Shown piece after piece: positions 176 through 9,288 of a stretch of DNA of 32,000 nucleotides. The stretch's first letter is position 1, and every line of letters starts with the position of its first letter. The stretch is from the NCBI GenBank assembly GCA_963520685.1, contig CAUQSD010000019.1:1-32000 (forward strand). The letters run 5' to 3'. Position numbers and translations under genes: made by a program. The DNA comes from an uncultured Kingella sp. (GTDB taxonomy: Bacteria > Pseudomonadota > Gammaproteobacteria > Burkholderiales > Neisseriaceae). Below the pieces are notes generated by a model, which saw nothing but the letters and a program-made list of their open reading frames with translations, had not been told where the DNA came from and searched no databases.

Positions 176-322
176 TATATATTCGCCCCGATGGGGCAAA
201 ATCCTGACAAGTATCTTTGAGATAAACTCATGATCTGTTTGTAAGGCTGGTTTAGCCCCAAAAATCAAGGGGCATTAAAGTATATCTGAACAAGCCCCTT
301 GTGTAACCAAGGGGCTTTAATT

Positions 323-535
323 ATGTCTAAAAGTATCAATCAGGCACAAGAGAGTGGTTTACATATTGATTTTTCAGCAGACAAAGTTACTTTTTACAGA
401 TTCGGAAAAGAAGTAGTAACTGTAAAACTGCAAAAAACATTAAATGATTTATCAGATGACGAAGAATTAAGTAAATCAGTAGATTATTTTTTAAAAACAG
501 GCATTTTTGATTATAAAGGCATAACAATCTTATGA
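323..535 (+). CDS. Hypothetical small phage protein (70 aa)
   Basis: ATG at 323 is preceded by AAGGGG. The ORF is AT-rich and is the first ORF inside the prophage. No recognisable motif. The TTG start at 299 in the ORF track is less likely. Confidence 0.45.
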   Translation: MSKSINQAQESGLHIDFSADKVTFYRFGKEVVTVKLQKTLNDLSDDEELSKSVDYFLKTGIFDYKGITIL

Positions 536-573
536 ATCAAGGTCATAAAAGACAGAGCCAAACAAGGGCGCAA

Positions 574-653
574 GCCGACGGCGCAGGCAGACAGCGCGCC
601 AGCGCGGCTGCCTGCGGCGGTGGCGAAAGCCCCCCCTAGGCTAAAAGGGGGGG
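574..653. promoter_or_regulatory. GC-rich hairpin cluster upstream of rep; candidate phage origin or packaging signal
   Basis: An imperfect 17-bp inverted repeat lies at 574-590/608-624 (14/17 by hand). A C7/G7 hairpin lies at 630-636/647-653 with a 10-nt loop. Both sit in a GC island within otherwise AT-rich phage DNA. Confidence 0.35.
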
Positions 654-736
654 AGCGGATAAAACCCCAAGTAAACTAAACGGGGGAGCAGAAAACAGTA
701 GGGATTATTTTAAAGAAGGTCAAATTCAGTAGCATC

Positions 737-2065
737 ATGGAATTAAATTTTCAGAATTACAATTATTTCAATCATGCTGTAACTGTTGGCGGTAAGGTTA
801 TTGAAATCCCTTTGCGTAAAGGCATTAAGGATTCGGCTTTTATTGATGCGCTTACGTTTACGATTAAGAAGGAAACTATAGATATCGTAAAAGGTATCTG
901 TTTGGACGATAGTCAATATATCGCGGCATATAGCGAAATCCTTATAGATATTTTCGGGTTCGGGGTAACGGAACATTTAGGCAAGGGGCGTTATTTTTAT
1001 AAGGCGTTTTATCGTTTGGGAGACGAAAAAGCAGAATACGGCACGCTGCATATAGGCGGGCAGCGTGAAACCGTTTTAGTGGAATTGACGGGTACGGGCT
1101 GTCAAGCGGCAAAAGCAGGGTGGGAACAGCGGCTTTATGATTTCTTAAGTCAGGCGGTTCGTCCACAAATCACACGGATAGACTGCGCACATGATTTTTT
1201 TAACGGGGAGTACACGCCCGAACAGGCACTTATCGATCATAACAACGGCTTATTCAACCGATCCAACTGTAAACCTAAGTCCGAGTTACGGGGTACGGCA
1301 TGGCGCGAAGAAGACTATTCGGGCAAAACTTTTTATGTCGGACGGCGCGGTAGTTCCAAGTTGACACGTGTTTACGAGAAAGGCAGGCAGTTAGGCGATA
1401 AAGACAGCCCTTGGGTAAGGTTTGAGGTTGAGTTTAGAAACAAGGATTGCGTTATCCCATTAGAGATACTGACTGCACCGGGCGAGTATCTTACTGGTGC
1501 TTATCCAGTCGGTGAGAAGCTGTTTGGCAGTCCTGCTATATCTATACGTGCCTCAGAAGAAAAGGTAAACATCCATTTTGACAGCAAGCTTGGCCATGCT
1601 AAAAACCAAGTCGGGCGGATGGTACGTTTACTGAAAGATGCAGGCTGGAGCAGTGATGAAATTGTAGAAGCCTTAATTGCCGATGAAGGCAAGTATCCTA
1701 AGGGTTTGAATCCTGAAGAATATGACTGCACCAAATCTCAAGCCGTTTATATAACGCAAGGTGATGAAATACCTGAAGATTTACAACCTGACGAACTGGA
1801 TGAAGCAGTTGGTATCAGTGAAGCAGTTAGGATTTTTAATGAAACCGTGCCTGATGAAGAGAAAACAGAGCATCAAAAGCAATTGGTTTTTGAAGTTTCG
1901 GACGATATTAAACGTTATCTTGAAGTGTGGAAGCAGCAGGAATATTTCGTTTCGGTGGGCAAACTAACTATGGCGGAGCGAATTAAACAGGAGCAAGACC
2001 AGTATCTTGATTACCTCTATATGAAGTACGGTACACTTTTCCCAACCAACCGACATAAACGATAA
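737..2065 (+). CDS. Rolling-circle replication initiation protein (Rep_trans / RstA / Nf ORF1-like)
   Basis: 442 aa with motifs RIDCAHDFF and YVGRRGSSKLTRVYEKG...VRFEVEFRNKD, typical of the PF02486 replication initiation factor. It is the first large gene of the inovirus module. Confidence 0.85.
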   Translation: MELNFQNYNYFNHAVTVGGKVIEIPLRKGIKDSAFIDALTFTIKKETIDIVKGICLDDSQYIAAYSEILIDIFGFGVTEHLGKGRYFYKAFYRLGDEKAEYGTLHIGGQRETVLVELTGTGCQAAKAGWEQRLYDFLSQAVRPQITRIDCAHDFFNGEYTPEQALIDHNNGLFNRSNCKPKSELRGTAWREEDYSGKTFYVGRRGSSKLTRVYEKGRQLGDKDSPWVRFEVEFRNKDCVIPLEILTAPGEYLTGAYPVGEKLFGSPAISIRASEEKVNIHFDSKLGHAKNQVGRMVRLLKDAGWSSDEIVEALIADEGKYPKGLNPEEYDCTKSQAVYITQGDEIPEDLQPDELDEAVGISEAVRIFNETVPDEEKTEHQKQLVFEVSDDIKRYLEVWKQQEYFVSVGKLTMAERIKQEQDQYLDYLYMKYGTLFPTNRHKR

Positions 2066-2075
2066 AGGATTTATT

Positions 2076-2402
2076 ATGTCATTGAATTTTAATGCTCAGG
2101 TAGAGCTTACTTATCAACGTAAAATTGTAATGGGCGTCACCAAGTTTAAGGGTGAAATCGAAGGTAATGTAATTGATAGCTGTTCTGTCTTGATTGCCGC
2201 GCCTTTAAGTGATACTTCCGGCAATGCCAAAGGTTTCGGGGTGGCAAAAGTTCCTTTCGGGCAATCTGACAACTTTAACCGTTTTGCAGGCGCGCAGTTC
2301 CCCTGTGAAATGGATTTGGCGTTTCAAACGGAGACCAACGCATCGGGGCGGCAGCGTGAAGTATTGAAGGATATAAAACTTGTTTCCGGAGCGAAAGGGT
2401 AA
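2076..2402 (+). CDS. Putative ssDNA-binding protein (gV-like, by size and position)
   Basis: 108 aa, immediately after rep, with RBS AAAGGA. The assignment is positional only. Confidence 0.45.
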   Translation: MSLNFNAQVELTYQRKIVMGVTKFKGEIEGNVIDSCSVLIAAPLSDTSGNAKGFGVAKVPFGQSDNFNRFAGAQFPCEMDLAFQTETNASGRQREVLKDIKLVSGAKG

Positions 2403-2406
2403 ATTG

Positions 2407-2610
2407 ATGCAGGCTTTCTACATCGTTCAGGATTTAGAAACATTTGAGTTTCTTTTTCCGTCTTCTGACGGCGGTGTAGGACAAACGTCCTACATCAAAA
2501 AGGCAGGACATTTTGAAGAGTTTGAGGACGCATTGTCGGCGGGTGAGGATTTAGGTGTGCCGTTTGCAGTCTTCCGTTTCTACCTGTCCGAATCAATTAA
2601 GGCAGCCTGA
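2407..2610 (+). CDS. Hypothetical phage protein (67 aa)
   Basis: ATG at 2407, tightly packed after the previous ORF. The last codons GCA GCC TGA are supplied by a perfect DUS 12-mer at 2600-2611. Confidence 0.4.
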   Translation: MQAFYIVQDLETFEFLFPSSDGGVGQTSYIKKAGHFEEFEDALSAGEDLGVPFAVFRFYLSESIKAA

Positions 2611-2620
2611 AGATTAAATT

Positions 2621-2902
2621 ATGACACGGGATGAAATAGATGCTGAAATTCAGCGATATGCAGATGCTATAAATGAAGCATGGGTCGTCATTAATAATGA
2701 AGATTTATATCATAATCATCTTGTAGAGTCAGCAAGAAATGTCGTTAATTATGCTTCAAGAAGGATTTCAGAGTTATCAGAAATGCTTGGTGACGATGAA
2801 ATTGAAGAATATGAGCGGGATGCTTTTATTGTTGATGCTTTTGAAGAGGAACAAGATGAGCTGGATTATGCAGCAGATTTAGAAGATTATGATTTGTATT
2901 GA
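2621..2902 (+). CDS. Hypothetical acidic phage protein (93 aa)
   Basis: Uninterrupted ORF in the phage operon with a D/E-rich C-terminus. No recognised domain. Confidence 0.4.
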   Translation: MTRDEIDAEIQRYADAINEAWVVINNEDLYHNHLVESARNVVNYASRRISELSEMLGDDEIEEYERDAFIVDAFEEEQDELDYAADLEDYDLY

Positions 2903-3029
2903 TTTTATAAATCAGATTCTTAAATCAATAGCAATATGGATTATTAGTATTTTAGTGCGTTCGGGCGGCGCGCGCTAATTTTGCCCTATCAGCCGCCCAT
3001 TTTTATCAATTTTTTATAGGAAGTTCATC

Positions 3030-3239
3030 ATGAACAAATTATCCAAAAAAACCGCACTCGTTCTTGCGTCTGCAGGTTTACTCTCATCCAATGCCTTTGC
3101 AGGCGAGTTGCTTCAAGCCGCACAGACTGCAACTACAGATTTCAAAGCCGATTTGACAGCCGCAGGAGGCTTGGTTATCGGTATCGCACTGATTTCTGTG
3201 GGTGTGGGTTTGATGATCCGCATGTTCCGTAAGGCGTAA
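3030..3239 (+). CDS. Major coat protein (gVIII-like)
   Basis: 69 aa with signal peptide MNKLSKKTALVLASAGLLSSNAFA, an amphipathic mature N-terminus, TM segment GGLVIGIALISVGVGLMI and basic tail RMFRKA. RBS is TAGGAAG. Confidence 0.8.
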   Translation: MNKLSKKTALVLASAGLLSSNAFAGELLQAAQTATTDFKADLTAAGGLVIGIALISVGVGLMIRMFRKA

Positions 3240-3262
3240 AGTGTAAAAGCAAAGGAGTAACC

Positions 3263-3562
3263 ATGGGATACCGCGTAGGAGGTCAATGCTTCGCAAATTT
3301 TGAGGAAGCGTCCGATTATCGGATGAGCATGGTTACTCCCACTATTATTAATGACGGCAGTCTAAAAATGCCGGTACGAAAATCAGACGGCTGGTATTAC
3401 GAAAACATTAAAGTACAACTAACCTATCCAACTTGTGATCCAGTATCACCTTTTGAAGATGGCGTTAAATTAGGACTATTAATAATGACTATGTTTGTTT
3501 TAGTTTTTGGTGTAAAAACAATGATTAAGATGTTTGAAATGGCAGGCGCGTCAAAGGATTAA
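3263..3562 (+). CDS. Hypothetical membrane / minor coat protein (99 aa)
   Basis: RBS AAAGGAG, C-terminal TM LGLLIMTMFVLVFGV, located in the structural module. Confidence 0.5.
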   Translation: MGYRVGGQCFANFEEASDYRMSMVTPTIINDGSLKMPVRKSDGWYYENIKVQLTYPTCDPVSPFEDGVKLGLLIMTMFVLVFGVKTMIKMFEMAGASKD

Positions 3563-3564
3563 GA

Positions 3565-4047
3565 ATGGAAACAAACAAACCCAAAGGCGGTAATGGTCTG
3601 TCCGCAGTAGTCAAAACCGAAATTTCAGAGATGAAGAAGGATTTAAACCTATCAGGCGAATTAGTTTTAGGAATTACCCTTATTATAATATTTGTATATT
3701 TAATAATTAATATTTTTAAGAATTTAAATGATAAAGATAAAGTTGAAAAAGAATATGAAGAAGAAAATTTAGAAGAAGACACATTAGAAATAGAAAAAAA
3801 TCTACCTAATCAGGAATTAGAAGAATTTAAAAAACCATTAGAAGAAGTACAGGCAGAAGTAGATGAAATACTTTCACGAATGGTAGAGATTACTTCAAAA
3901 TTGGAAGCGACAGAAAATGAACAGGAAAAAGAGAAGCTAAATAAAGAGTTTCAGGAGTTAATGGAAAAATTATCAGAGATAGAAGCACAAAATCCTGAAT
4001 GGGTGGCAGCCGATCAACGCAGGCGCATGGAAGAAGAAAATGTATAA
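3565..4047 (+). CDS. Single-pass membrane protein with E/K-rich coiled-coil tail (160 aa)
   Basis: Start overlaps the previous stop region. TM is LVLGITLIIIFVYLIINIF, followed by a long acidic heptad-like region. Very AT-rich. Confidence 0.5.
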   Translation: METNKPKGGNGLSAVVKTEISEMKKDLNLSGELVLGITLIIIFVYLIINIFKNLNDKDKVEKEYEEENLEEDTLEIEKNLPNQELEEFKKPLEEVQAEVDEILSRMVEITSKLEATENEQEKEKLNKEFQELMEKLSEIEAQNPEWVAADQRRRMEEENV

Positions 4048-4131
4048 CTACGATGTGTTAATTTTCATACTAGGGATAGTATTTACGATACCTTTTTGGA
4101 TATTATTTATAAAATAAACAAGGATTAAGAA

Positions 4132-5550
4132 ATGAAGAAAATATTTTTATTCGTGATGATTTTAATGTCTCTTTATGCTAATGCAGGAGAAAATAATAGT
4201 GGTAATAATGATGTTTTAGATCAGGATTTGAATGATGTTAGTGTTACTCCATGTACTAAAGAACCTGATGGTTTGAAAAAAAATTTTAAAGGTAGAAAGT
4301 ATTATTGTTATAAGGGCAATATGATTGAAGAGGGAGCTGATTTAAGTAAGTTGAAAGAGTGTGGTCCTAATGATAAATATTGCGGAAGTGTAGTTTTAAA
4401 AAAAGAGAAAACACAGGAAGATTATGAAAAAGAAGGTTATGTTTTTTATGATTTAGGAAAGCCGAAAGATATTGGTAGGAAAGAAGAACCTAAAAGTTCA
4501 AATGGCAATAATAATTCTCAAGGAAATTCTAATTCGTCAAATAATGGTACGCAAGCCTCCAATAAACCCGCCGAACCTAACAAGCCACAGCAACCTACTC
4601 CACAACCTACCCCGCAACCCACCCCACAACCTACCCCCAATCCCCAGCCCGCTCCAGTCCCAACACCTAAAATTCCCAATGTGCCTAAAATCCCATCTGA
4701 GGAGTGGATAAACAAATGGCGGGATCATTGGATTGAGGTTTTTGACAGTTTTTCTAAAAAAATTGAAAACGAAAGAAAAATTCTGGCTATAAAGATACAA
4801 GACTGTAGGTCTATTTATACTGCCGGAACGAAGCAATCATCTGATTGCGTTGATAGGATGTTACAATCTTATAAAAAAACCATAGAAGAGATTAAAGAGA
4901 AAATTGAGCGGGCAAGATCCGATATGCAGAAAGAAGCCGCCGAATTATCAAAATCTGTTAAGAACGTTAATAAAAATGTCCCATATCCAAATACCGGGGG
5001 AGATAATACAAATAGTGAAACAAGTCAAAATGGAAATGGGAATAATAATGTAAACCTAAACGGAGACAATAATTCAGGCTCTGGAGACACTACTAATAAT
5101 TTTGGTGGTGATACCAATGTTACGAATAATAATGTTACCGTTAATAATAATACCTCAAAAACTGTGGTTAATAAGGGTGATGGTGGCGGCGGTAATCAAG
5201 TAGGTATTGATAAAGGAAATGGTGATGGTAACGGCAAAAAGGGGAACTGTGAAGGTGATAAAGGTACGGTTGGATGTGCCCAGTTAGGCAGCGAAAAGGA
5301 CTATCCCAAAGACGGATCAATCAGCATAGGTAAAAGCGATTTTGGATTACCATCTTTTTCTCGCTCGAATAACTTTGTTGAACAGGGCTCTTGCCCAGCA
5401 CCGAAATCAATTACTTTAATGGGTACGGTTCAAGTGGTTGATTATTCCCAGTTATGTAGTGGGGCTTTAAAATTAAGACCTATTATTATCGCATGTGCAA
5501 TATTTATAGCATTTGGAATCGTACGTTCAGCGATTATTTCTAAAACCTAA
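4132..5550 (+). CDS. Adsorption / minor coat protein (gIII-like)
   Basis: 472 aa with a signal peptide and a Cys-containing N-domain. It has a (PQPT)n proline linker, N/G-rich low-complexity linkers and a C-terminal TM anchor PIIIACAIFIAFGIV. It occupies the position before g6p-like and Zot. Confidence 0.65.
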   Translation: MKKIFLFVMILMSLYANAGENNSGNNDVLDQDLNDVSVTPCTKEPDGLKKNFKGRKYYCYKGNMIEEGADLSKLKECGPNDKYCGSVVLKKEKTQEDYEKEGYVFYDLGKPKDIGRKEEPKSSNGNNNSQGNSNSSNNGTQASNKPAEPNKPQQPTPQPTPQPTPQPTPNPQPAPVPTPKIPNVPKIPSEEWINKWRDHWIEVFDSFSKKIENERKILAIKIQDCRSIYTAGTKQSSDCVDRMLQSYKKTIEEIKEKIERARSDMQKEAAELSKSVKNVNKNVPYPNTGGDNTNSETSQNGNGNNNVNLNGDNNSGSGDTTNNFGGDTNVTNNNVTVNNNTSKTVVNKGDGGGGNQVGIDKGNGDGNGKKGNCEGDKGTVGCAQLGSEKDYPKDGSISIGKSDFGLPSFSRSNNFVEQGSCPAPKSITLMGTVQVVDYSQLCSGALKLRPIIIACAIFIAFGIVRSAIISKT

Positions 5551-5561
5551 GGGATTTTAAA

Positions 5562-5846
5562 ATGCCGGTATTTATCAGACTATTAGGCGGATTGCTCACG
5601 ACGTTTGTCGGGCAGATATTCGCCGCGCTCGGTTTATCGGTAGTGAGTTACGGTGGTGCGAAGCTGTTGCAAAATCAGTTTGTAAACTATATTTCGGGCA
5701 GCCTGAACAGTATTCCTCCAGAAATCTTACAGATTTTTTATCTGGCAGGCGGTGGCGTAGCTTTGAACTGGATATTCGGTGCAACCTCTTTTGCGTTAAG
5801 TCTTTCAGCAGTCTCAAAGCTTGGCAGTATCTTTAAAGCCAAGTAA
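5562..5846 (+). CDS. gVI-like small membrane protein (94 aa)
   Basis: Three hydrophobic segments, located between the adsorption protein and Zot as in other inoviruses. Confidence 0.5.
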   Translation: MPVFIRLLGGLLTTFVGQIFAALGLSVVSYGGAKLLQNQFVNYISGSLNSIPPEILQIFYLAGGGVALNWIFGATSFALSLSAVSKLGSIFKAK

Positions 5847-5858
5847 GGAAACTTAAAA

Positions 5859-6929
5859 GTGATAAGCTTGATTACAGGTCTTCCAGGTTCAGGTAAAACA
5901 AGCCTGATGGTGCATATGTTGATGACCCGTCCAGATTTACAGAATCGTCCTTTATATGTAGATGGGATACCTGAATTAAAAATACCGCATATGCCTATAC
6001 CCGACGGCGAAGATATGACCACATGGCATAACTGGGCTCCCACAGGAGCGGTATTGGTTATAGACGAGGCACAGCGGATATTCCGTCCCCGCCCTGCCGG
6101 AGCGAAAGTACCCGATTTTGTGCAGGAGTTGGAAACTCACCGTCATAAAGGCATAGATATTTTTATCCTGACCCAATCTCCGCGCTTGATTGATGTCAAT
6201 GTCCGTGCATTGGTTGGAGAACATAGAAATATCAGTAGAACCATGCTCGGTTTGAAACGTGTCAGTTATTGGCAGAAATGTGCTAATCCTGAAAGCAGGA
6301 ACGACGTTGCAGAAGCTAAGAACAGCATTTTTACCATGAAAAAAGATGCATTCGGCATGTATAAAAGTGCCGAAGAGCATACCAAACTTAAAGGCGCGTT
6401 ATCATCTTGGGTGTGGTTTATGCCGGTGCTTCTATTTGCTTTGGTTTACGTTGGAATGGGTCTTAAACAGAGTTATGAAGCGAAAATACAGCCTGAAAGC
6501 GCACAGCAGCAAACGGCAAAGACACCGCAAAGCGTGGATGAGCCGCAAGGCACGGTAGGGGGGAGCTCAAAGCATGAGAGCAACAGAGATATAGGGATGG
6601 GAGAGGCATCCGAACAGATAAAACCCTTGGCCGCATCGGACTTTGAGCCTTCCATAGAGGGCCAACCTTGGACGGCCGCTATTTATAACGGACTCAATCG
6701 CAACGTACAAACCATGCCCTATCCTGCCGGATGTGTTAAATCTGCGGATAAATGTACGTGCTATACAGACCAGGCAACCCCGATAAGAGAGATCAAAAAA
6801 GACGTATGTATAGACTACGCCGAAAACGGAATCTATAACCCTTATATCAATTCGGAGTACGCGCAAAATACAGTTATGCCTAGAGAGGTTGAGCAGCCTC
6901 AAACTAAGGTTTTACAACTTGGGCAATAG
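5859..6929 (+). CDS. Zot / pI-like phage assembly ATPase
   Basis: GTG start after TAAGGAA. Walker A is GLPGSGKT, Walker B is VLVIDEAQ, and there is a central TM WVWFMPVLLFALVYVGMGL. This is the typical Zot N-domain architecture. Confidence 0.9.
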   Translation: MISLITGLPGSGKTSLMVHMLMTRPDLQNRPLYVDGIPELKIPHMPIPDGEDMTTWHNWAPTGAVLVIDEAQRIFRPRPAGAKVPDFVQELETHRHKGIDIFILTQSPRLIDVNVRALVGEHRNISRTMLGLKRVSYWQKCANPESRNDVAEAKNSIFTMKKDAFGMYKSAEEHTKLKGALSSWVWFMPVLLFALVYVGMGLKQSYEAKIQPESAQQQTAKTPQSVDEPQGTVGGSSKHESNRDIGMGEASEQIKPLAASDFEPSIEGQPWTAAIYNGLNRNVQTMPYPAGCVKSADKCTCYTDQATPIREIKKDVCIDYAENGIYNPYINSEYAQNTVMPREVEQPQTKVLQLGQ

Positions 6930-6944
6930 ATAGGCAAGTAGATT

Positions 6945-7355
6945 TTATTCCAGCTTAAATGTAAAAGATGTTGTAAATCGCGTTGTTGCAGGTTTACCGT
7001 TTATTTCTTTGGGTGCATATAAAGCATTTTTTGCTGCATTTATTGCTGCTTTATCCAAAATTTCCGAACCGCTGGATTGGATAATGATAACGTCTTTAAC
7101 TACCGCGTCAGCATCAACAATAACGGCAAGCTTTACAGTTCCTTCCTCTTCATTTTGTAGCGATTCGGGTGGATATTTAGGATTGGGTATTGTTATATAG
7201 CCACCTTCTTTTATTTCAGGTTCTTTTTGCGTTTCGGTTTTTTCTTTGAATACTACGTATTCTTTATTTACATCTTTTTTATTAACATTATGAGCTATAT
7301 ATGCCAATAATCCGCAGATTATGGATAGCAAAAAGATGATGATATTTTGTTTCAT
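6945..7355 (-). CDS. TonB C-terminal-domain protein (136 aa), antisense cargo gene in the prophage
   Basis: N-terminal TM, then YPPESLQNEEEGTVKLAVIVDADAVVKDVIIIQSSGSEILDKAAINAAKNALYAP, matching the TonB_C consensus (YP...G.V.v.f.v...G.v..v.v..SSG...LD.aA). Convergent with zot across a 15-bp gap. Confidence 0.7.
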   Translation of the reverse strand: MKQNIIIFLLSIICGLLAYIAHNVNKKDVNKEYVVFKEKTETQKEPEIKEGGYITIPNPKYPPESLQNEEEGTVKLAVIVDADAVVKDVIIIQSSGSEILDKAAINAAKNALYAPKEINGKPATTRFTTSFTFKLE

Positions 7356-7384
7356 AGGTTTTCTTTCAGATAGGAGTTATAGAA

Positions 7385-7610
7385 TAGAAGATATACAATT
7401 AACGGTACATGAAATGTGCCGTTAATTGTATATCCGCCAACCGCAGGGCGGCAGTGAAACTATAACGGTAAGGTAATTAATGTTACAATTAAGAGCCGTA
7501 TAACGCCCGCGAATCGCTGCCTTGGCAACAAGCCATCGCAAAAGATTGGTGCATACGGCTTTTTTATTTTTGTTGAAACATAACAGTATCATGGGCAATC
7601 AGCCCTTATC
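7385..7610 (+). ncRNA. Candidate structured non-coding RNA (possible IS110-type bridge RNA); extent and strand unverified
   Basis: No ORF in the 270 nt. An 18-bp stem lies at 7391-7408/7416-7433 (one G.U pair) and a GC hairpin at 7434-7438/7447-7451. An 8-bp stem at 7494-7501/7553-7560 is followed by a T-run. ACAGTATC at 7583-7590 equals the right-end sequence 8619-8626. Confidence 0.3.
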
Positions 7611-7626
7611 GTAAGGTTTGTACATA

Positions 7627-8592
7627 ATGACGACAATTTACTTGGGCTTAGATATCGGTAAAGACAATATTGATGCTGTAACTGCTCAAACACCGCACAT
7701 TACCGTCTCCAATGACGAAGCTGGCTATCGGAAACTGTTGGATTATCTGCAAATTCACCAATTGGATTTAACCCGTATCCATGCCTGCTGCGAATCCACC
7801 AATATCTATTATCTCGGCATTGCCGCCTATCTTTACCGGCACAATATTAAAATCAGCGTCATAAACCCTACCGCCATTAAAGCCTATGCCAAGATGCAGC
7901 TTAGGCGGGTTAAAACGGATAAGCAGGATGCCAAGATGATAGCCGATTATTGTCGTAAAGAGCAGCCCGCAGCATGGCAGCCTGAAAGCGATATTAAAAG
8001 GCAGCTTAAAAACCTGCACCGCCGCATAGAGCAACTTAATGAAATCCATATCCAAGAGCAAAACCGCTTACAGGTTGCCGACGACTGTACCAAAGAATCC
8101 ATAGAGTACCTGATAGCAACCCTGCAAACGCAAATCGCCGGCTGCCGTAAACAGATGCAGGACATTATAGACAAATCGGCGGATTTAAAGCGCAAGCAGA
8201 AAAACCTTGAAACCATACCCGGTATCGGCCGAACTACCGCTCAAATACTGTTGTCGGTCTTAATCGATTTGGAGCGGTTTGAAACCTCCAAGCACCTTAT
8301 CAGCTATTTGGGCTTAAGCCCTATTATCCGTGATAGCGGCAAGTACAAGGGCTTGCAGCGTGTATCCAAAATGGGTAGCCGTTCGGTACGCAAAAGTCTG
8401 TATATGCCCGCAAGGACAGCCTGCACCCGCTCCAAGCTTTGGCGTGCGTGGTTTGACTACCAAATCGGACGTGGCAAACACCCTAAGCAGGTTTACGTTA
8501 TGATGATGTGCAAAATCCTACGCTATGCCTATGCCTGTCTGAAAACGGACAAGCCTTTTGATGCTTCGCTTCATAAGAAACCAAATAGTTAA
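7627..8592 (+). CDS. IS110 / Piv-family DEDD transposase (recombinase)
   Basis: 321 aa with LGLDIGKD, CCESTNIYY and RVKTDKQDAKMIA (DEDD_Tnp_IS110), and C-terminal IPGIGRTTAQ...GLSPIIRDSGKYKG...SKMGSRSVRKSLYM (Transposase_20). ATG at 7627 after GTAAGG is preferred over TTG at 7618. Confidence 0.92.
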   Translation: MTTIYLGLDIGKDNIDAVTAQTPHITVSNDEAGYRKLLDYLQIHQLDLTRIHACCESTNIYYLGIAAYLYRHNIKISVINPTAIKAYAKMQLRRVKTDKQDAKMIADYCRKEQPAAWQPESDIKRQLKNLHRRIEQLNEIHIQEQNRLQVADDCTKESIEYLIATLQTQIAGCRKQMQDIIDKSADLKRKQKNLETIPGIGRTTAQILLSVLIDLERFETSKHLISYLGLSPIIRDSGKYKGLQRVSKMGSRSVRKSLYMPARTACTRSKLWRAWFDYQIGRGKHPKQVYVMMMCKILRYAYACLKTDKPFDASLHKKPNS

Positions 8593-8606
8593 GTTTTGTA
8601 AATTCA

Positions 8607-8612
8607 TTGACA
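8607..8612 (+). promoter_or_regulatory. Outward-facing consensus -35 hexamer TTGACA at the prophage right end
   Basis: Exact TTGACA lies 8 nt before the terminal AGTATCTTT, and no -10 follows in the integrated state. Compatible with a circle-junction promoter half-site. Confidence 0.3.
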
Positions 8613-8634
8613 AAAATTACAGTATCTTTTGGGT

Positions 8635-9288
8635 TTACAGCGCGCGGTCAAAATACAGATTGACGCTGCTTGCCGCTGCCATGTTGCGCAGATAGGTTTC
8701 CACGTTCTGCGGATAGGCGAGGGACTGGACCATACTGAGGTTGCGCAGCAGCGGGAAGACGATGATGTCTTCCATACTCAGGTTTTGGCCGTTGAGACAG
8801 CTGCTGCCTGCCGTCAGGCGGGAGAGTTCCTGCAAATCGGCCTCGGCGCGGGCAAGGTATTCGGGGGTTTCGGCAAGCATTTGGGCAAATGTTTTGCCGC
8901 TGAATGCTTCTTTTTTGGCGGTGAAATAGTCTATTGCGGACTGGGTGGCAAATTCGGGCAGGCCGAGGCGGATGCTGCGGGGATAGAGCAGGTTGGTGAT
9001 GTAGCCGCTGACGCGGTCGTACCATGCTTGGATTTCGGGGCGGATTTGGGGGGCGATGGCTTCGCCGCCGTTGCATTGGGCCAGATAGTGCACGATGTCT
9101 AGGCTCTCGCCCATGAAGCTGCCGTCCGGTTTTTCCAGAATGGGGACTTGTTTTGCACCAATCATACGGATGGGGGTTGCTTCGTCGTCATTGGCAAGGT
9201 AGGCGGTGGCAACGGGCAGCTTGCGCAGGCCGATAACGATGCGGGGGCGTACGCAGAAGGGGCAGTGGTCGTATATATAGAGTTTCAT
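8635..9288 (-). CDS. grxB: Glutaredoxin 2
   Basis: MKLYIYDHCPFCVRPR...GAKQVPILEKPDGSFMGESLDIVHY aligns along its whole length with E. coli GrxB as I recall it (CPYC-type site, about 215 aa). Confidence 0.93.
   Translation of the reverse strand: MKLYIYDHCPFCVRPRIVIGLRKLPVATAYLANDDEATPIRMIGAKQVPILEKPDGSFMGESLDIVHYLAQCNGGEAIAPQIRPEIQAWYDRVSGYITNLLYPRSIRLGLPEFATQSAIDYFTAKKEAFSGKTFAQMLAETPEYLARAEADLQELSRLTAGSSCLNGQNLSMEDIIVFPLLRNLSMVQSLAYPQNVETYLRNMAAASSVNLYFDRAL

Follow-up and report, generated by a model that had tools for sequence, protein, structure and literature searches.

The first 32,000 nt of contig CAUQSD010000019.1 (uncultured Kingella sp.), which as a whole are referred to below as the window, contain a filamentous (Inovirus) prophage at positions 177-8628. 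Its integration module, a recombinase gene at the right end of the element together with the region directly upstream of that gene, is very probably a bridge recombination system of the type known from the insertion sequence (IS) IS621. Comparison of related sequences supports a putative bridge RNA at 7494-7620, composed of a target loop (7494-7560) followed by a donor loop (7576-7620), and likewise supports the reading in which the phage genome is the cargo of this system. Relatives were gathered by one protein search and four collection scans (two of viral contigs, one of genome contigs and one of metagenome contigs); where loci must be told apart, they carry an L number. The element, its recombinase and the sites which delimit it are as follows.

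177-8628, + strand: filamentous (Inovirus) prophage, 8452 bp with one core copy (empty site, attP junctions, open reading frames)
7627-8592, + strand: predicted IS110-family DEDD/Ser bridge recombinase, 321 aa (Pfam, IS621 match, catalytic residues D9, E56, D98, D101 and S237)
169-174, + strand: left target, GCTGCC (empty site)
175-176, + strand: left copy of the TT core, the attL crossover (empty site compared with attL and attR)
8619-8626, + strand: left donor arm, ACAGTATC, the right prophage end
8627-8628, + strand: right copy of the TT core (empty site, attP junctions)
8629-8634, + strand: right target, TTGGGT, host DNA (empty site)
attB, the unoccupied host site: GGTTTTCAGGCTGCCTTTTGGGTTTACAG

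The limits of the element rest on unoccupied and joined counterparts. An empty site, GGCTGCC-TT-TTGGGT, was found in two contigs (L241 and L244), and the unoccupied sequence ...GGTTTTCAGGCTGCC-TT-TTGGGTTTACAGCG is identical to the left flank of the window, TT and the right flank. The joint between the right and left ends (RE and LE) is seen in L160, a contig from a metagenome, and in OR148979.1 (L240), a circular inovirus genome from saliva, where it reads ...TTGACA-N14-ACAGTATC-TT-(A/G)TATATT..., with attP as ACAGTATC-TT-ATATATT. TT occurs once in attB, once in attP and on either side of the prophage, which indicates a 2-nt core duplicated on insertion, i.e. a conservative reaction. On the basis of the empty site and the attP junctions we place the prophage at 177-8628 with a TT core. 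A left end at 199-229, where the first-pass annotation of this DNA had put it, was rejected: the same comparisons give 175-177, so that 199-229 lies inside the element, and the sequence mistaken for the terminus belongs, as guide strand, to another donor-loop-like module, described below. The statement that there is no dif-like site stands, as attP and attB share only TT (TTNT, counting position +2). Integration is beside grxB and not at a terminus site.

The recombinase open reading frame (ORF) matches Pfam families PF01548 (DEDD_Tnp_IS110) and PF02371, and both the RuvC-like DEDD domain and the Tnp domain with its catalytic Ser are present. It aligns over its full length with IS621 (PDB 8wt6; residues 5-317, E=4e-58) and with ISCro4 (9t56; E=4e-57). 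Among 32 homologues, D9, E56, D98 and S237 are invariant and D101 nearly so; the ORF of the window is intact and keeps all of these residues. An exact-protein look-up of its sequence returned no record. The other prophage ORFs encode Rep_trans, coat, G6P-like, Zot and TonB_C proteins, and no second recombinase was found among them in the ORF list or by Pfam domains, in agreement with the earlier view of this enzyme as the only recombinase of the prophage. The same gene order, IS110 recombinase included, is repeated in dozens of inovirus contigs. A strict definition of an IS (~1.2-1.5 kb, recombinase only, no passenger genes) does not describe an element of 8452 bp with a full inovirus gene set. 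The ends of this element coincide exactly with donor arms and the TT core, and the proposal that a whole filamentous phage of about 8.4 kb is the cargo of the module is supported.

The conserved part of the recombinase leader, found in Kingella, Alysiella, Eikenella, Neisseria, Suttonella and other hosts, comprises the last ~130 nt before the ATG. Here, a 13-pair helix around a large internal loop is followed by a T-rich linker and a second, looser internal loop.

7494-7560, + strand: target-binding loop (TBL; covariation, guide/flank matches, attB)
7494-7507/7548-7560, + strand: TBL outer helix, 13 pairs (covariation)
7523-7535, + strand: TBL inner hairpin, 4 bp (covariation)
7560-7571, + strand: T-rich linker, TTTTTTATTTTT (T-rich in most relatives, not all)
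7576-7620, + strand: leader donor-binding loop (DBL), closing stem AAAC/GTTT (covariation, folds)
7583-7590, + strand: left donor guide, ACAGTATC, a sense copy of the right end, with AT next at 7591-7592
7593-7605, + strand: DBL inner hairpin, GGGC-AATCA-GCCC (covariation)
7606-7616, + strand: DBL 3' strand, TTATCGTAAGG, of which TAAGG is complementary to CC-TT-A of attL

The first-pass annotation had taken the entire 270-nt leader as a candidate bridge RNA. Of this, 7494-7620 is conserved and covaries, while an 18-bp stem and a GC hairpin that it had included fall outside. Its 8-bp stem AGCCGTAT/ATACGGCT (7494-7501/7553-7560) and the T-run thereafter (7560-7571) are both present, but the stem extends into the TBL outer helix and its role as the base of the target loop had gone unrecognised.

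Two sets of sequences were used to gauge covariation. In 14 hand-picked sequences, 94% of cells were paired, as against 28-43% in slid controls, and changes on both sides were seen in 17 of the 21 pairs, a count reached by none of 500 shuffles. A covariance model was built from these sequences, and 36 distinct sequences were aligned to it; 97% of cells in this second alignment, which is fitted to the model and hence biased toward structure, were paired, with compensatory changes in all 21 pairs. Covariation among homologous leaders, which had been put forward as a check on the bridge-RNA proposal, is therefore present. With a cut-off of E<0.01, the model found 123 matches, every one on the recombinase strand and abutting the gene. 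Among them are clades with a protein identity of only 28-37% and contigs from Cellvibrionales, Nitrospirales and soil, so that some hosts lie outside the Neisseriaceae. The target loop on its own also folds better than expected (z=-3.2). No Rfam family matched at gathering thresholds, and permissive Rfam scans of 7350-7650 and 130-340 returned generic hairpin look-alikes only (miRNA models) and no curated bridge-RNA model.

In the loops of IS621, the 5' strand carries the left arm and core in the sense orientation, the 3' strand is complementary to core and right arm, the two handshake bases alongside match the DNA partner of the other loop, and a core mismatch is disfavoured (PMC11208160; PMC11208158). 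In the window, the 5' strand of the TBL holds a left target guide (LTG), GCTGCCTT (7516-7523), equal to the left target GCTGCC plus the TT core. The 3' strand, TCGCAAAAGATT, holds a right target guide (RTG), CAAAA (7539-7543), complementary to TT + TTG, and the handshake GAT (7544-7546), complementary to ATC of the phage right end; its reverse complement reads AATC-TT-TTGCGA, compared with ATC-TT-TTGGGT at attR. A search of the loops for matches to the junctions, as the first-pass annotation had suggested, thus recovers both target guides.

These matches recur among relatives. The handshake GAU of the target loop is complementary to ATC in all 42 loci. Across 29 non-redundant loci, right guides matched their own flanks over a mean of 5.3 nt beyond ATC, a value attained in none of 10,000 permutations, and non-cognate flanks over 2.45 nt; the modal match comprised ATC, TT and a further 4 nt, lengths as in IS621. 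Left guides were compared within the 11 loci with an attL, and guide and own flank agree as GCTGCC-TT (window, L008), GCAGCC-TT (L010), ACGGCC-T (L011, L016) and TAGCC-TT (L020, L090), with one mismatch in L009 (guide GCTGCC, flank GCAGCC). A second recombinase clade, in which the right end is ACACTATC, obeys the same guide rules, as does a compact 1.3-kb IS of the same clade in a Cellvibrionales genome (L024), whose left terminus lies ~45 nt before the RNA.

The host side of the reaction involves the DNA uptake sequence (DUS), of which thousands of near-identical copies are found in a genome, ending terminators. The element lies behind one such structure.

138-175, + strand: hairpin of a host terminator, formed by two AG-kingDUS copies in inverted orientation (AGGCAGCCTGAA at 138-149, reverse complement at 164-175)

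The window contains 23 AG-kingDUS copies, and its host is hence Kingella-like. As left target, the host DUS appears in reverse complement, the 12-mer stopping exactly at the first T of the core, and insertion took place at the T-tract behind the DUS-pair terminator. Left targets correspond to AG-kingDUS in the window and L008, to AG-simDUS in L009 and L010, and to AG-DUS in L011 and L016 (dialect sequences from PMC7371117). The left guide, as judged from these loci, appears to track the DUS dialect of each host. For L020 and L090 (Eikenella), the left target is what we take to be the Eikenella dialect, while in L001, L002 and L005 it is presumably the K. denitrificans dialect, in forward orientation and ending one base before the core.

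Further observations concern the targets of individual loci. One AG-kingDUS lies inside the prophage itself (2600-2611), where the opposite strand reads GCTGCCTT-AATT and could offer a self-target, although its right arm does not match. A single Suttonella ornithocola genome holds three copies (L017, L018, L023) with the left strands TTTGGCAT, ATTGACAT and TTCTGCAT, and right guides TATAGT or TATATT; their core is TA. Two of these copies agree with their own right flanks over 9 nt, and to us the set looks like natural reprogramming within one host. Suttonella left ends were not found, as the contigs are too short. At the other locus occupied by a 92%-identical phage with the same guides (L250/L251), the flank reads TT-TGGGTTTAT, compared with TT-TTGGGTTTAC in the window (8627-8640). 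These flanks, to which TGGGTTTA is common, resemble each other more than they do the guide (TT-TTGCGA).

The donor side is represented by ACAGTATC, which is found exactly twice in 32 kb (7583-7590 and 8619-8626, both + strand; 0.19 occurrences expected by chance). Its identification as one guide arm of a donor loop was made in the first-pass annotation and has gained from comparison with relatives, in which guide and right end change together: both have ACAG or both have ACGG, and the leader copy follows where the end is ACGGTATC or ACACTATC, the latter being shared by guide and end in the second clade. On the 3' strand, UAAGG is complementary to CC (the end of the left target, as a handshake), the TT core and the A with which the left end begins; the GG is complementary to a CC ending the left target in 8 of 11 attL sites. 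The AAGG of this strand doubles as a Shine-Dalgarno sequence. Ahead of AAGG, the leader DBL and the second donor loop at the left end both carry U or C in step with the base, A or G, that opens the right donor arm; both loops read CAAGG where the left end starts with G. The match of the putative right donor guide reaches TT+ATAT in L020. A contiguous right donor guide longer than the core and 1-4 nt was also considered and rejected, only chance 7-9-mers inside genes being found.

An Eikenella glucosivorans locus (L013; 9930-10000, 11059-11080) has a recombinase gene without a target loop, and there the donor-loop inner hairpin is joined without a gap to the DUS left target TTTTCAGGTAGCC. It looks like a phage-less remnant of recombination at the DNA which encodes the left donor guide.

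The second donor-loop-like module lies ~15 nt inside the left terminus, next to one half of a split promoter.

193-259, + strand: LE donor-binding-loop-like module (z=-3.1; folds alike in 10 loci)
within 193-259, + strand: outer stem of the LE module, GGGGCAAAATCC / GGTTTAGCCCC
207-217, + strand: 5' strand of the LE module, ACAAGTATCTT
218-230, + strand: inner hairpin of the LE module, TGAG-ATAAA-CTCA
231-246, + strand: 3' strand of the LE module, TGATCTGTTTGTAAGG
178-183, + strand: TATATT, with which the right donor arm begins and which is the -10 half of the putative junction promoter (joined relatives)
8607-8612, + strand: TTGACA, the -35 half of the putative junction promoter (fixed distance from the right end)

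In general form, the module consists of a GGGGC.../...GCCCC stem, ACA(A)GTATCTT, a 4-5-bp hairpin and ...GTAAGG. It was recognised in 10 loci, in which six different inner-hairpin sequences preserve the pairing; the comparison relied on per-sequence folds, because MAFFT alignments misplaced the hairpins relative to one another. The GTATCTT of positions 211-217 is part of this module and matches TT at the core position. The compact IS relative (L024) does without it. Directly upstream of the module, the joined ends form TTGACA-17-TATATT (an 11/12 match) in L160, and the same is seen in circular OR148979.1. The window carries both halves, and the promoter exists only with the right end joined to the left.

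A mechanism consistent with these findings can be outlined. The 321-aa recombinase would be guided by the non-coding RNA encoded directly upstream of its gene, and the double-stranded replicative form would assume the role of the IS circle, with the RE-LE junction as attP. The first loop (7494-7560) would read the host site, its 3' strand CAAAAGAU pairing with TT-TTG of the top strand and, as a handshake, with ATC of the incoming phage end. The second (7576-7620) would read the junction of the phage circle, UAAGG pairing with the core and the left-end A, plus CC of the target as a handshake. Recombination at the TT core would place the phage directly behind the DUS-pair terminator, its left guide being tuned to the end of the host DUS dialect, and the circle junction would assemble a strong promoter reading into the LE module (193-259) and then into the phage genes. 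Transcription of the module and its action as RNA, the promoter and terminator roles, the donor loop which is used and a role in directionality are all things that we infer.

An extension of this scheme, which is conceivable but doubtful, takes the bridge RNA as split and duplicated such that it may act as a topological switch. The leader would supply the target loop, along with a donor loop detuned by its core guide AU, in any state, while strong transcription of the fully matched donor loop at 193-259 would come only from the promoter assembled on the circular replicative form, which would confine integration to conditions with a free circle present. Independently of this, the left guide would have co-evolved with the host DUS dialect, and an RNA guide would then set which Neisseriaceae genomes the virus can lysogenise.

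Several observations weigh against a bridge recombination system. Firstly, little of a right donor guide is seen: its match to the left end of the prophage, ATATATTC, amounts to TT+A, and no longer complement of the donor-loop 3' strand was found across each whole element. Of the features that define an IS621-like bridge system and can be sought in sequence, a clear right donor guide is the one not found. The leader donor loop, moreover, reads AT in place of the TT of the core, and its fold is no better than that of shuffled sequences (z=-0.8). The donor loop is the less secure half of the model. Secondly, the target guides do not always fit. The match to the right target of the window is TTG followed by one base in three, only 2/6 right-target bases match at the site of the 92%-identical phage, whose guide is the same, the CCTGCA guide of L001, L002 and L005 requires a 1-nt bulge to fit the flank CCTGCAC, and flanks match poorly in L002, L004, L009, L010 and L084. 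Thirdly, a consensus scan of 7300-7700 for promoters and terminators gave no canonical + strand promoter (no full sigma-70 site) and no terminator. Finally, covariation cannot separate an RNA from folded single-stranded phage DNA.

Some of these points bear on other explanations of the module. One, which we consider unlikely, is that the (A)CAGTATC(T)T motifs (207-217, 7583-7592, 8619-8628), three direct copies on one strand, are DNA sites recognised by the protein and that the leader is a regulatory 5' untranslated region, a role to which the Shine-Dalgarno sequence within the 3' strand would be suited. The motifs could be sub-terminal repeats, pseudo-donor sites or resolution sites, with the protein choosing the target. 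The DUS left target in L013, fused exactly at the leader copy, indicates that this DNA can be a recombination half-site. Recombination at guide-coding DNA is, however, expected of bridge systems as well, because the left donor guide by definition copies the donor arm. The target loop is left unexplained by protein recognition, since its strands covary with host flanks while the protein stays 50-90% identical.

It is more improbable still that the active form of the folds is single-stranded DNA (the + strand, packaged or from rolling-circle replication), in which they either pair with target and donor or form a recombination site. There is a parallel in CTXphi, where a folded attP serves as the recombination site for XerCD. 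The element is a filamentous phage, its + strand has the sense of the modules, the covariation would fit DNA hairpins equally and the scan for a canonical promoter came back empty. Yet the structure and the guide rules are shared with a compact IS that is not a phage (L024), the -10-like box described below precedes the structure at a fixed distance in most relatives, and the protein is a homologue of IS621, which has been shown to use RNA (PMC11208160; PMC11208158). That the module is a decayed or hitch-hiking IS110 copy, the phage being integrated by a host system such as XerCD, is scarcely credible despite the imperfect guide matches of the window lineage and the core mismatch in its leader donor loop, given prophage ends which coincide exactly with the donor arms and TT core, attachment sites sharing that core and no dif-like arms, an undamaged catalytic ORF and a gene order which recurs so widely.

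The bridge-RNA reading does not extend to the remainder of the leader, which has features of its own.

7390-7451, + strand: 21-bp hairpin and GC hairpin, outside the bridge RNA; candidate phage intergenic hairpin
7481-7489, + strand: putative promoter, the extended -10-like box TGTTACAAT, 5 nt upstream of the RNA (position kept in relatives)

The 18-bp stem noted earlier (7391-7408/7416-7433) is present and extends to a long hairpin of 21 nt per arm (7390-7410/7414-7434, 95% complementary); the GC hairpin, CCGCC/GGCGG with an 8-nt spacer (7434-7438/7447-7451), is likewise in the sequence. The description of the leader as highly structured holds for the leader as a whole (z=-5.4), but most of this is accounted for by the 21-bp hairpin (z=-9.2 alone), outside the conserved RNA. 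Both hairpins were rejected as parts of the bridge RNA: they are upstream of the -10-like box, and relatives keep only their structure, at the 3' end of zot. They are missing upstream of other recombinase homologues. In OR148979.1 (L240 1183-1248), an equally long hairpin with another stem sequence, accompanied by a near-identical GC hairpin, stands directly 3' of zot. We regard the pair as candidate phage intergenic hairpins, perhaps a packaging signal or terminator. Most relatives carry TGCTAAAAT or GGTAAAAT in the place of the -10-like box, and the T-rich linker may be a partial terminator after the target loop.

The leader had been described as free of ORFs. A mechanical 58-aa ORF starting with TTG does overlap it (7422-7598, - strand), but is unlikely to be coding because of the compensatory substitution pattern. 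In OR148979.1 (L240), a deposited 37-aa hypothetical protein (1299-1412) falls wholly inside the conserved bridge-RNA region; its ORF is probably spurious.

The genes carried by the prophage include the following.

737-2065, + strand: Rep (Rep_trans), prophage ORF
3030-3239, + strand: coat protein, prophage ORF
5562-5846, + strand: G6P-like protein, prophage ORF
5859-6929, + strand: Zot, prophage ORF
6945-7355, - strand: TonB_C ORF, 136 aa (PF03544, E=2e-20)

The TonB_C ORF, on the opposite strand inside the prophage between zot and the hairpins, is also found in L242, L243 and L249, is missing from OR148979.1 and looks like a passenger (moron) gene. The interval between the recombinase stop and the right end varies among relatives. 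L013, L015 and L020 have an extra hairpin-rich segment there, in the first ~100 nt after the stop; this Eikenella-type segment, AACAGTAG...CTGTTGC, contains GAAGATTGCC or GATGGCTATCGC and is missing from the window. In Kingella L004, L006, L008 and L012, the interval is of ~300 nt and holds an inverted-repeat element, AGTCAAGGGGGAAG...CCCCCTTGAC, which resembles a small insertion of the kind formed by miniature inverted-repeat transposable elements.

Bridge RNAs in IS110 elements, IS110 loci bearing cargo and the use of an IS110-family transposase at the host repeat dRS3 by Nf phages are already known. Full-text literature searches gave no paper linking filamentous or Neisseriaceae phages to a guide RNA or to DUS-directed integration. 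If correct, our reading would make this phage a clear example from nature of a whole virus, one that replicates autonomously, which relies on bridge-RNA-guided recombination to become a prophage. The Neisseriaceae filamentous phages, a family which includes relatives of the meningococcal-disease-associated (MDA) phage, choose repeated chromosomal targets, and this choice would reduce to 8+5 guide bases. The present phage would use DUS as landing pads, its guide following the dialect of each genus. Design variants of possible use in bridge-recombinase tools are the 8.4-kb size of a natural donor, the TT core, the marked shortness of the right donor guide and the second donor loop downstream of a putative circle-specific promoter.

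The system resembles IS621 in its recombinase, a full-length homologue (E=4e-58) with the same DEDD and Ser residues, in an RNA encoded directly 5' of the coding sequence with internal loops ordered target, then donor, in sense-copy 5' strands, complementary 3' strands (clearly so in the target loop, minimally in the donor loop) and handshake bases beside a 2-nt core, and in a circle promoter made of an RE -35 and an LE -10. It differs in that IS621 is a 1.3-kb IS, whereas the element here is an 8.45-kb replicating filamentous phage with ~7.3 kb of phage genes between its left terminus and the RNA. There is also an extra donor-loop-like module at the left terminus, no 5' stem-loop before the target loop, a core of TT rather than CT, a right donor guide cut to the core and 1-4 nt, and a target formed by a DUS terminator instead of a repetitive extragenic palindromic element.

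With Nf1-Nf4 and MDA the prophage shares inovirus genes (Rep_trans, coat, Zot) and an IS110-family transposase gene at the right end. Kawai et al. in 2005 reportedly proposed the transposase as the integrase of these Neisseriaceae filamentous phages (Nf1-Nf4), and an IS110-family transposase has been credited with the integration of Nf phages at dRS3, a short host repeat (PMC7058167). The window recombinase is, however, only ~32-37% identical to those of Nf-like viral contigs, and its target is the 3' edge of an AG-kingDUS inverted pair, not dRS3 (ATTCCC...GGGAAT; PMC7058167). Phages of the CTXphi type, which rely on XerCD and dif, similarly achieve site-specific inovirus integration without a tyrosine integrase of their own; here, by contrast, there is no dif-like site, the phage has its own DEDD recombinase and attP and attB share only a 2-nt core. 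The Piv invertase of Moraxella belongs to the same DEDD recombinase superfamily (~32% identity), but the present system has no inverted recombination sites, all copies of its donor motif lie on one strand and the outcome is insertion, not inversion.

Expanded IS110 loci that bear cargo have also been described (bioRxiv 10.64898/2026.08.14.744561), in a text which does not contain 'filamentous', 'prophage' or 'Neisseria'. In these, as here, a recombinase and bridge RNA flank kilobases of cargo, and LTG and RTG match the flanks. Their cargo, however, is mainly resistance or plasmid-like, with partial donor-boundary matches, whereas the element in the window is a complete autonomous virus with both boundaries intact.

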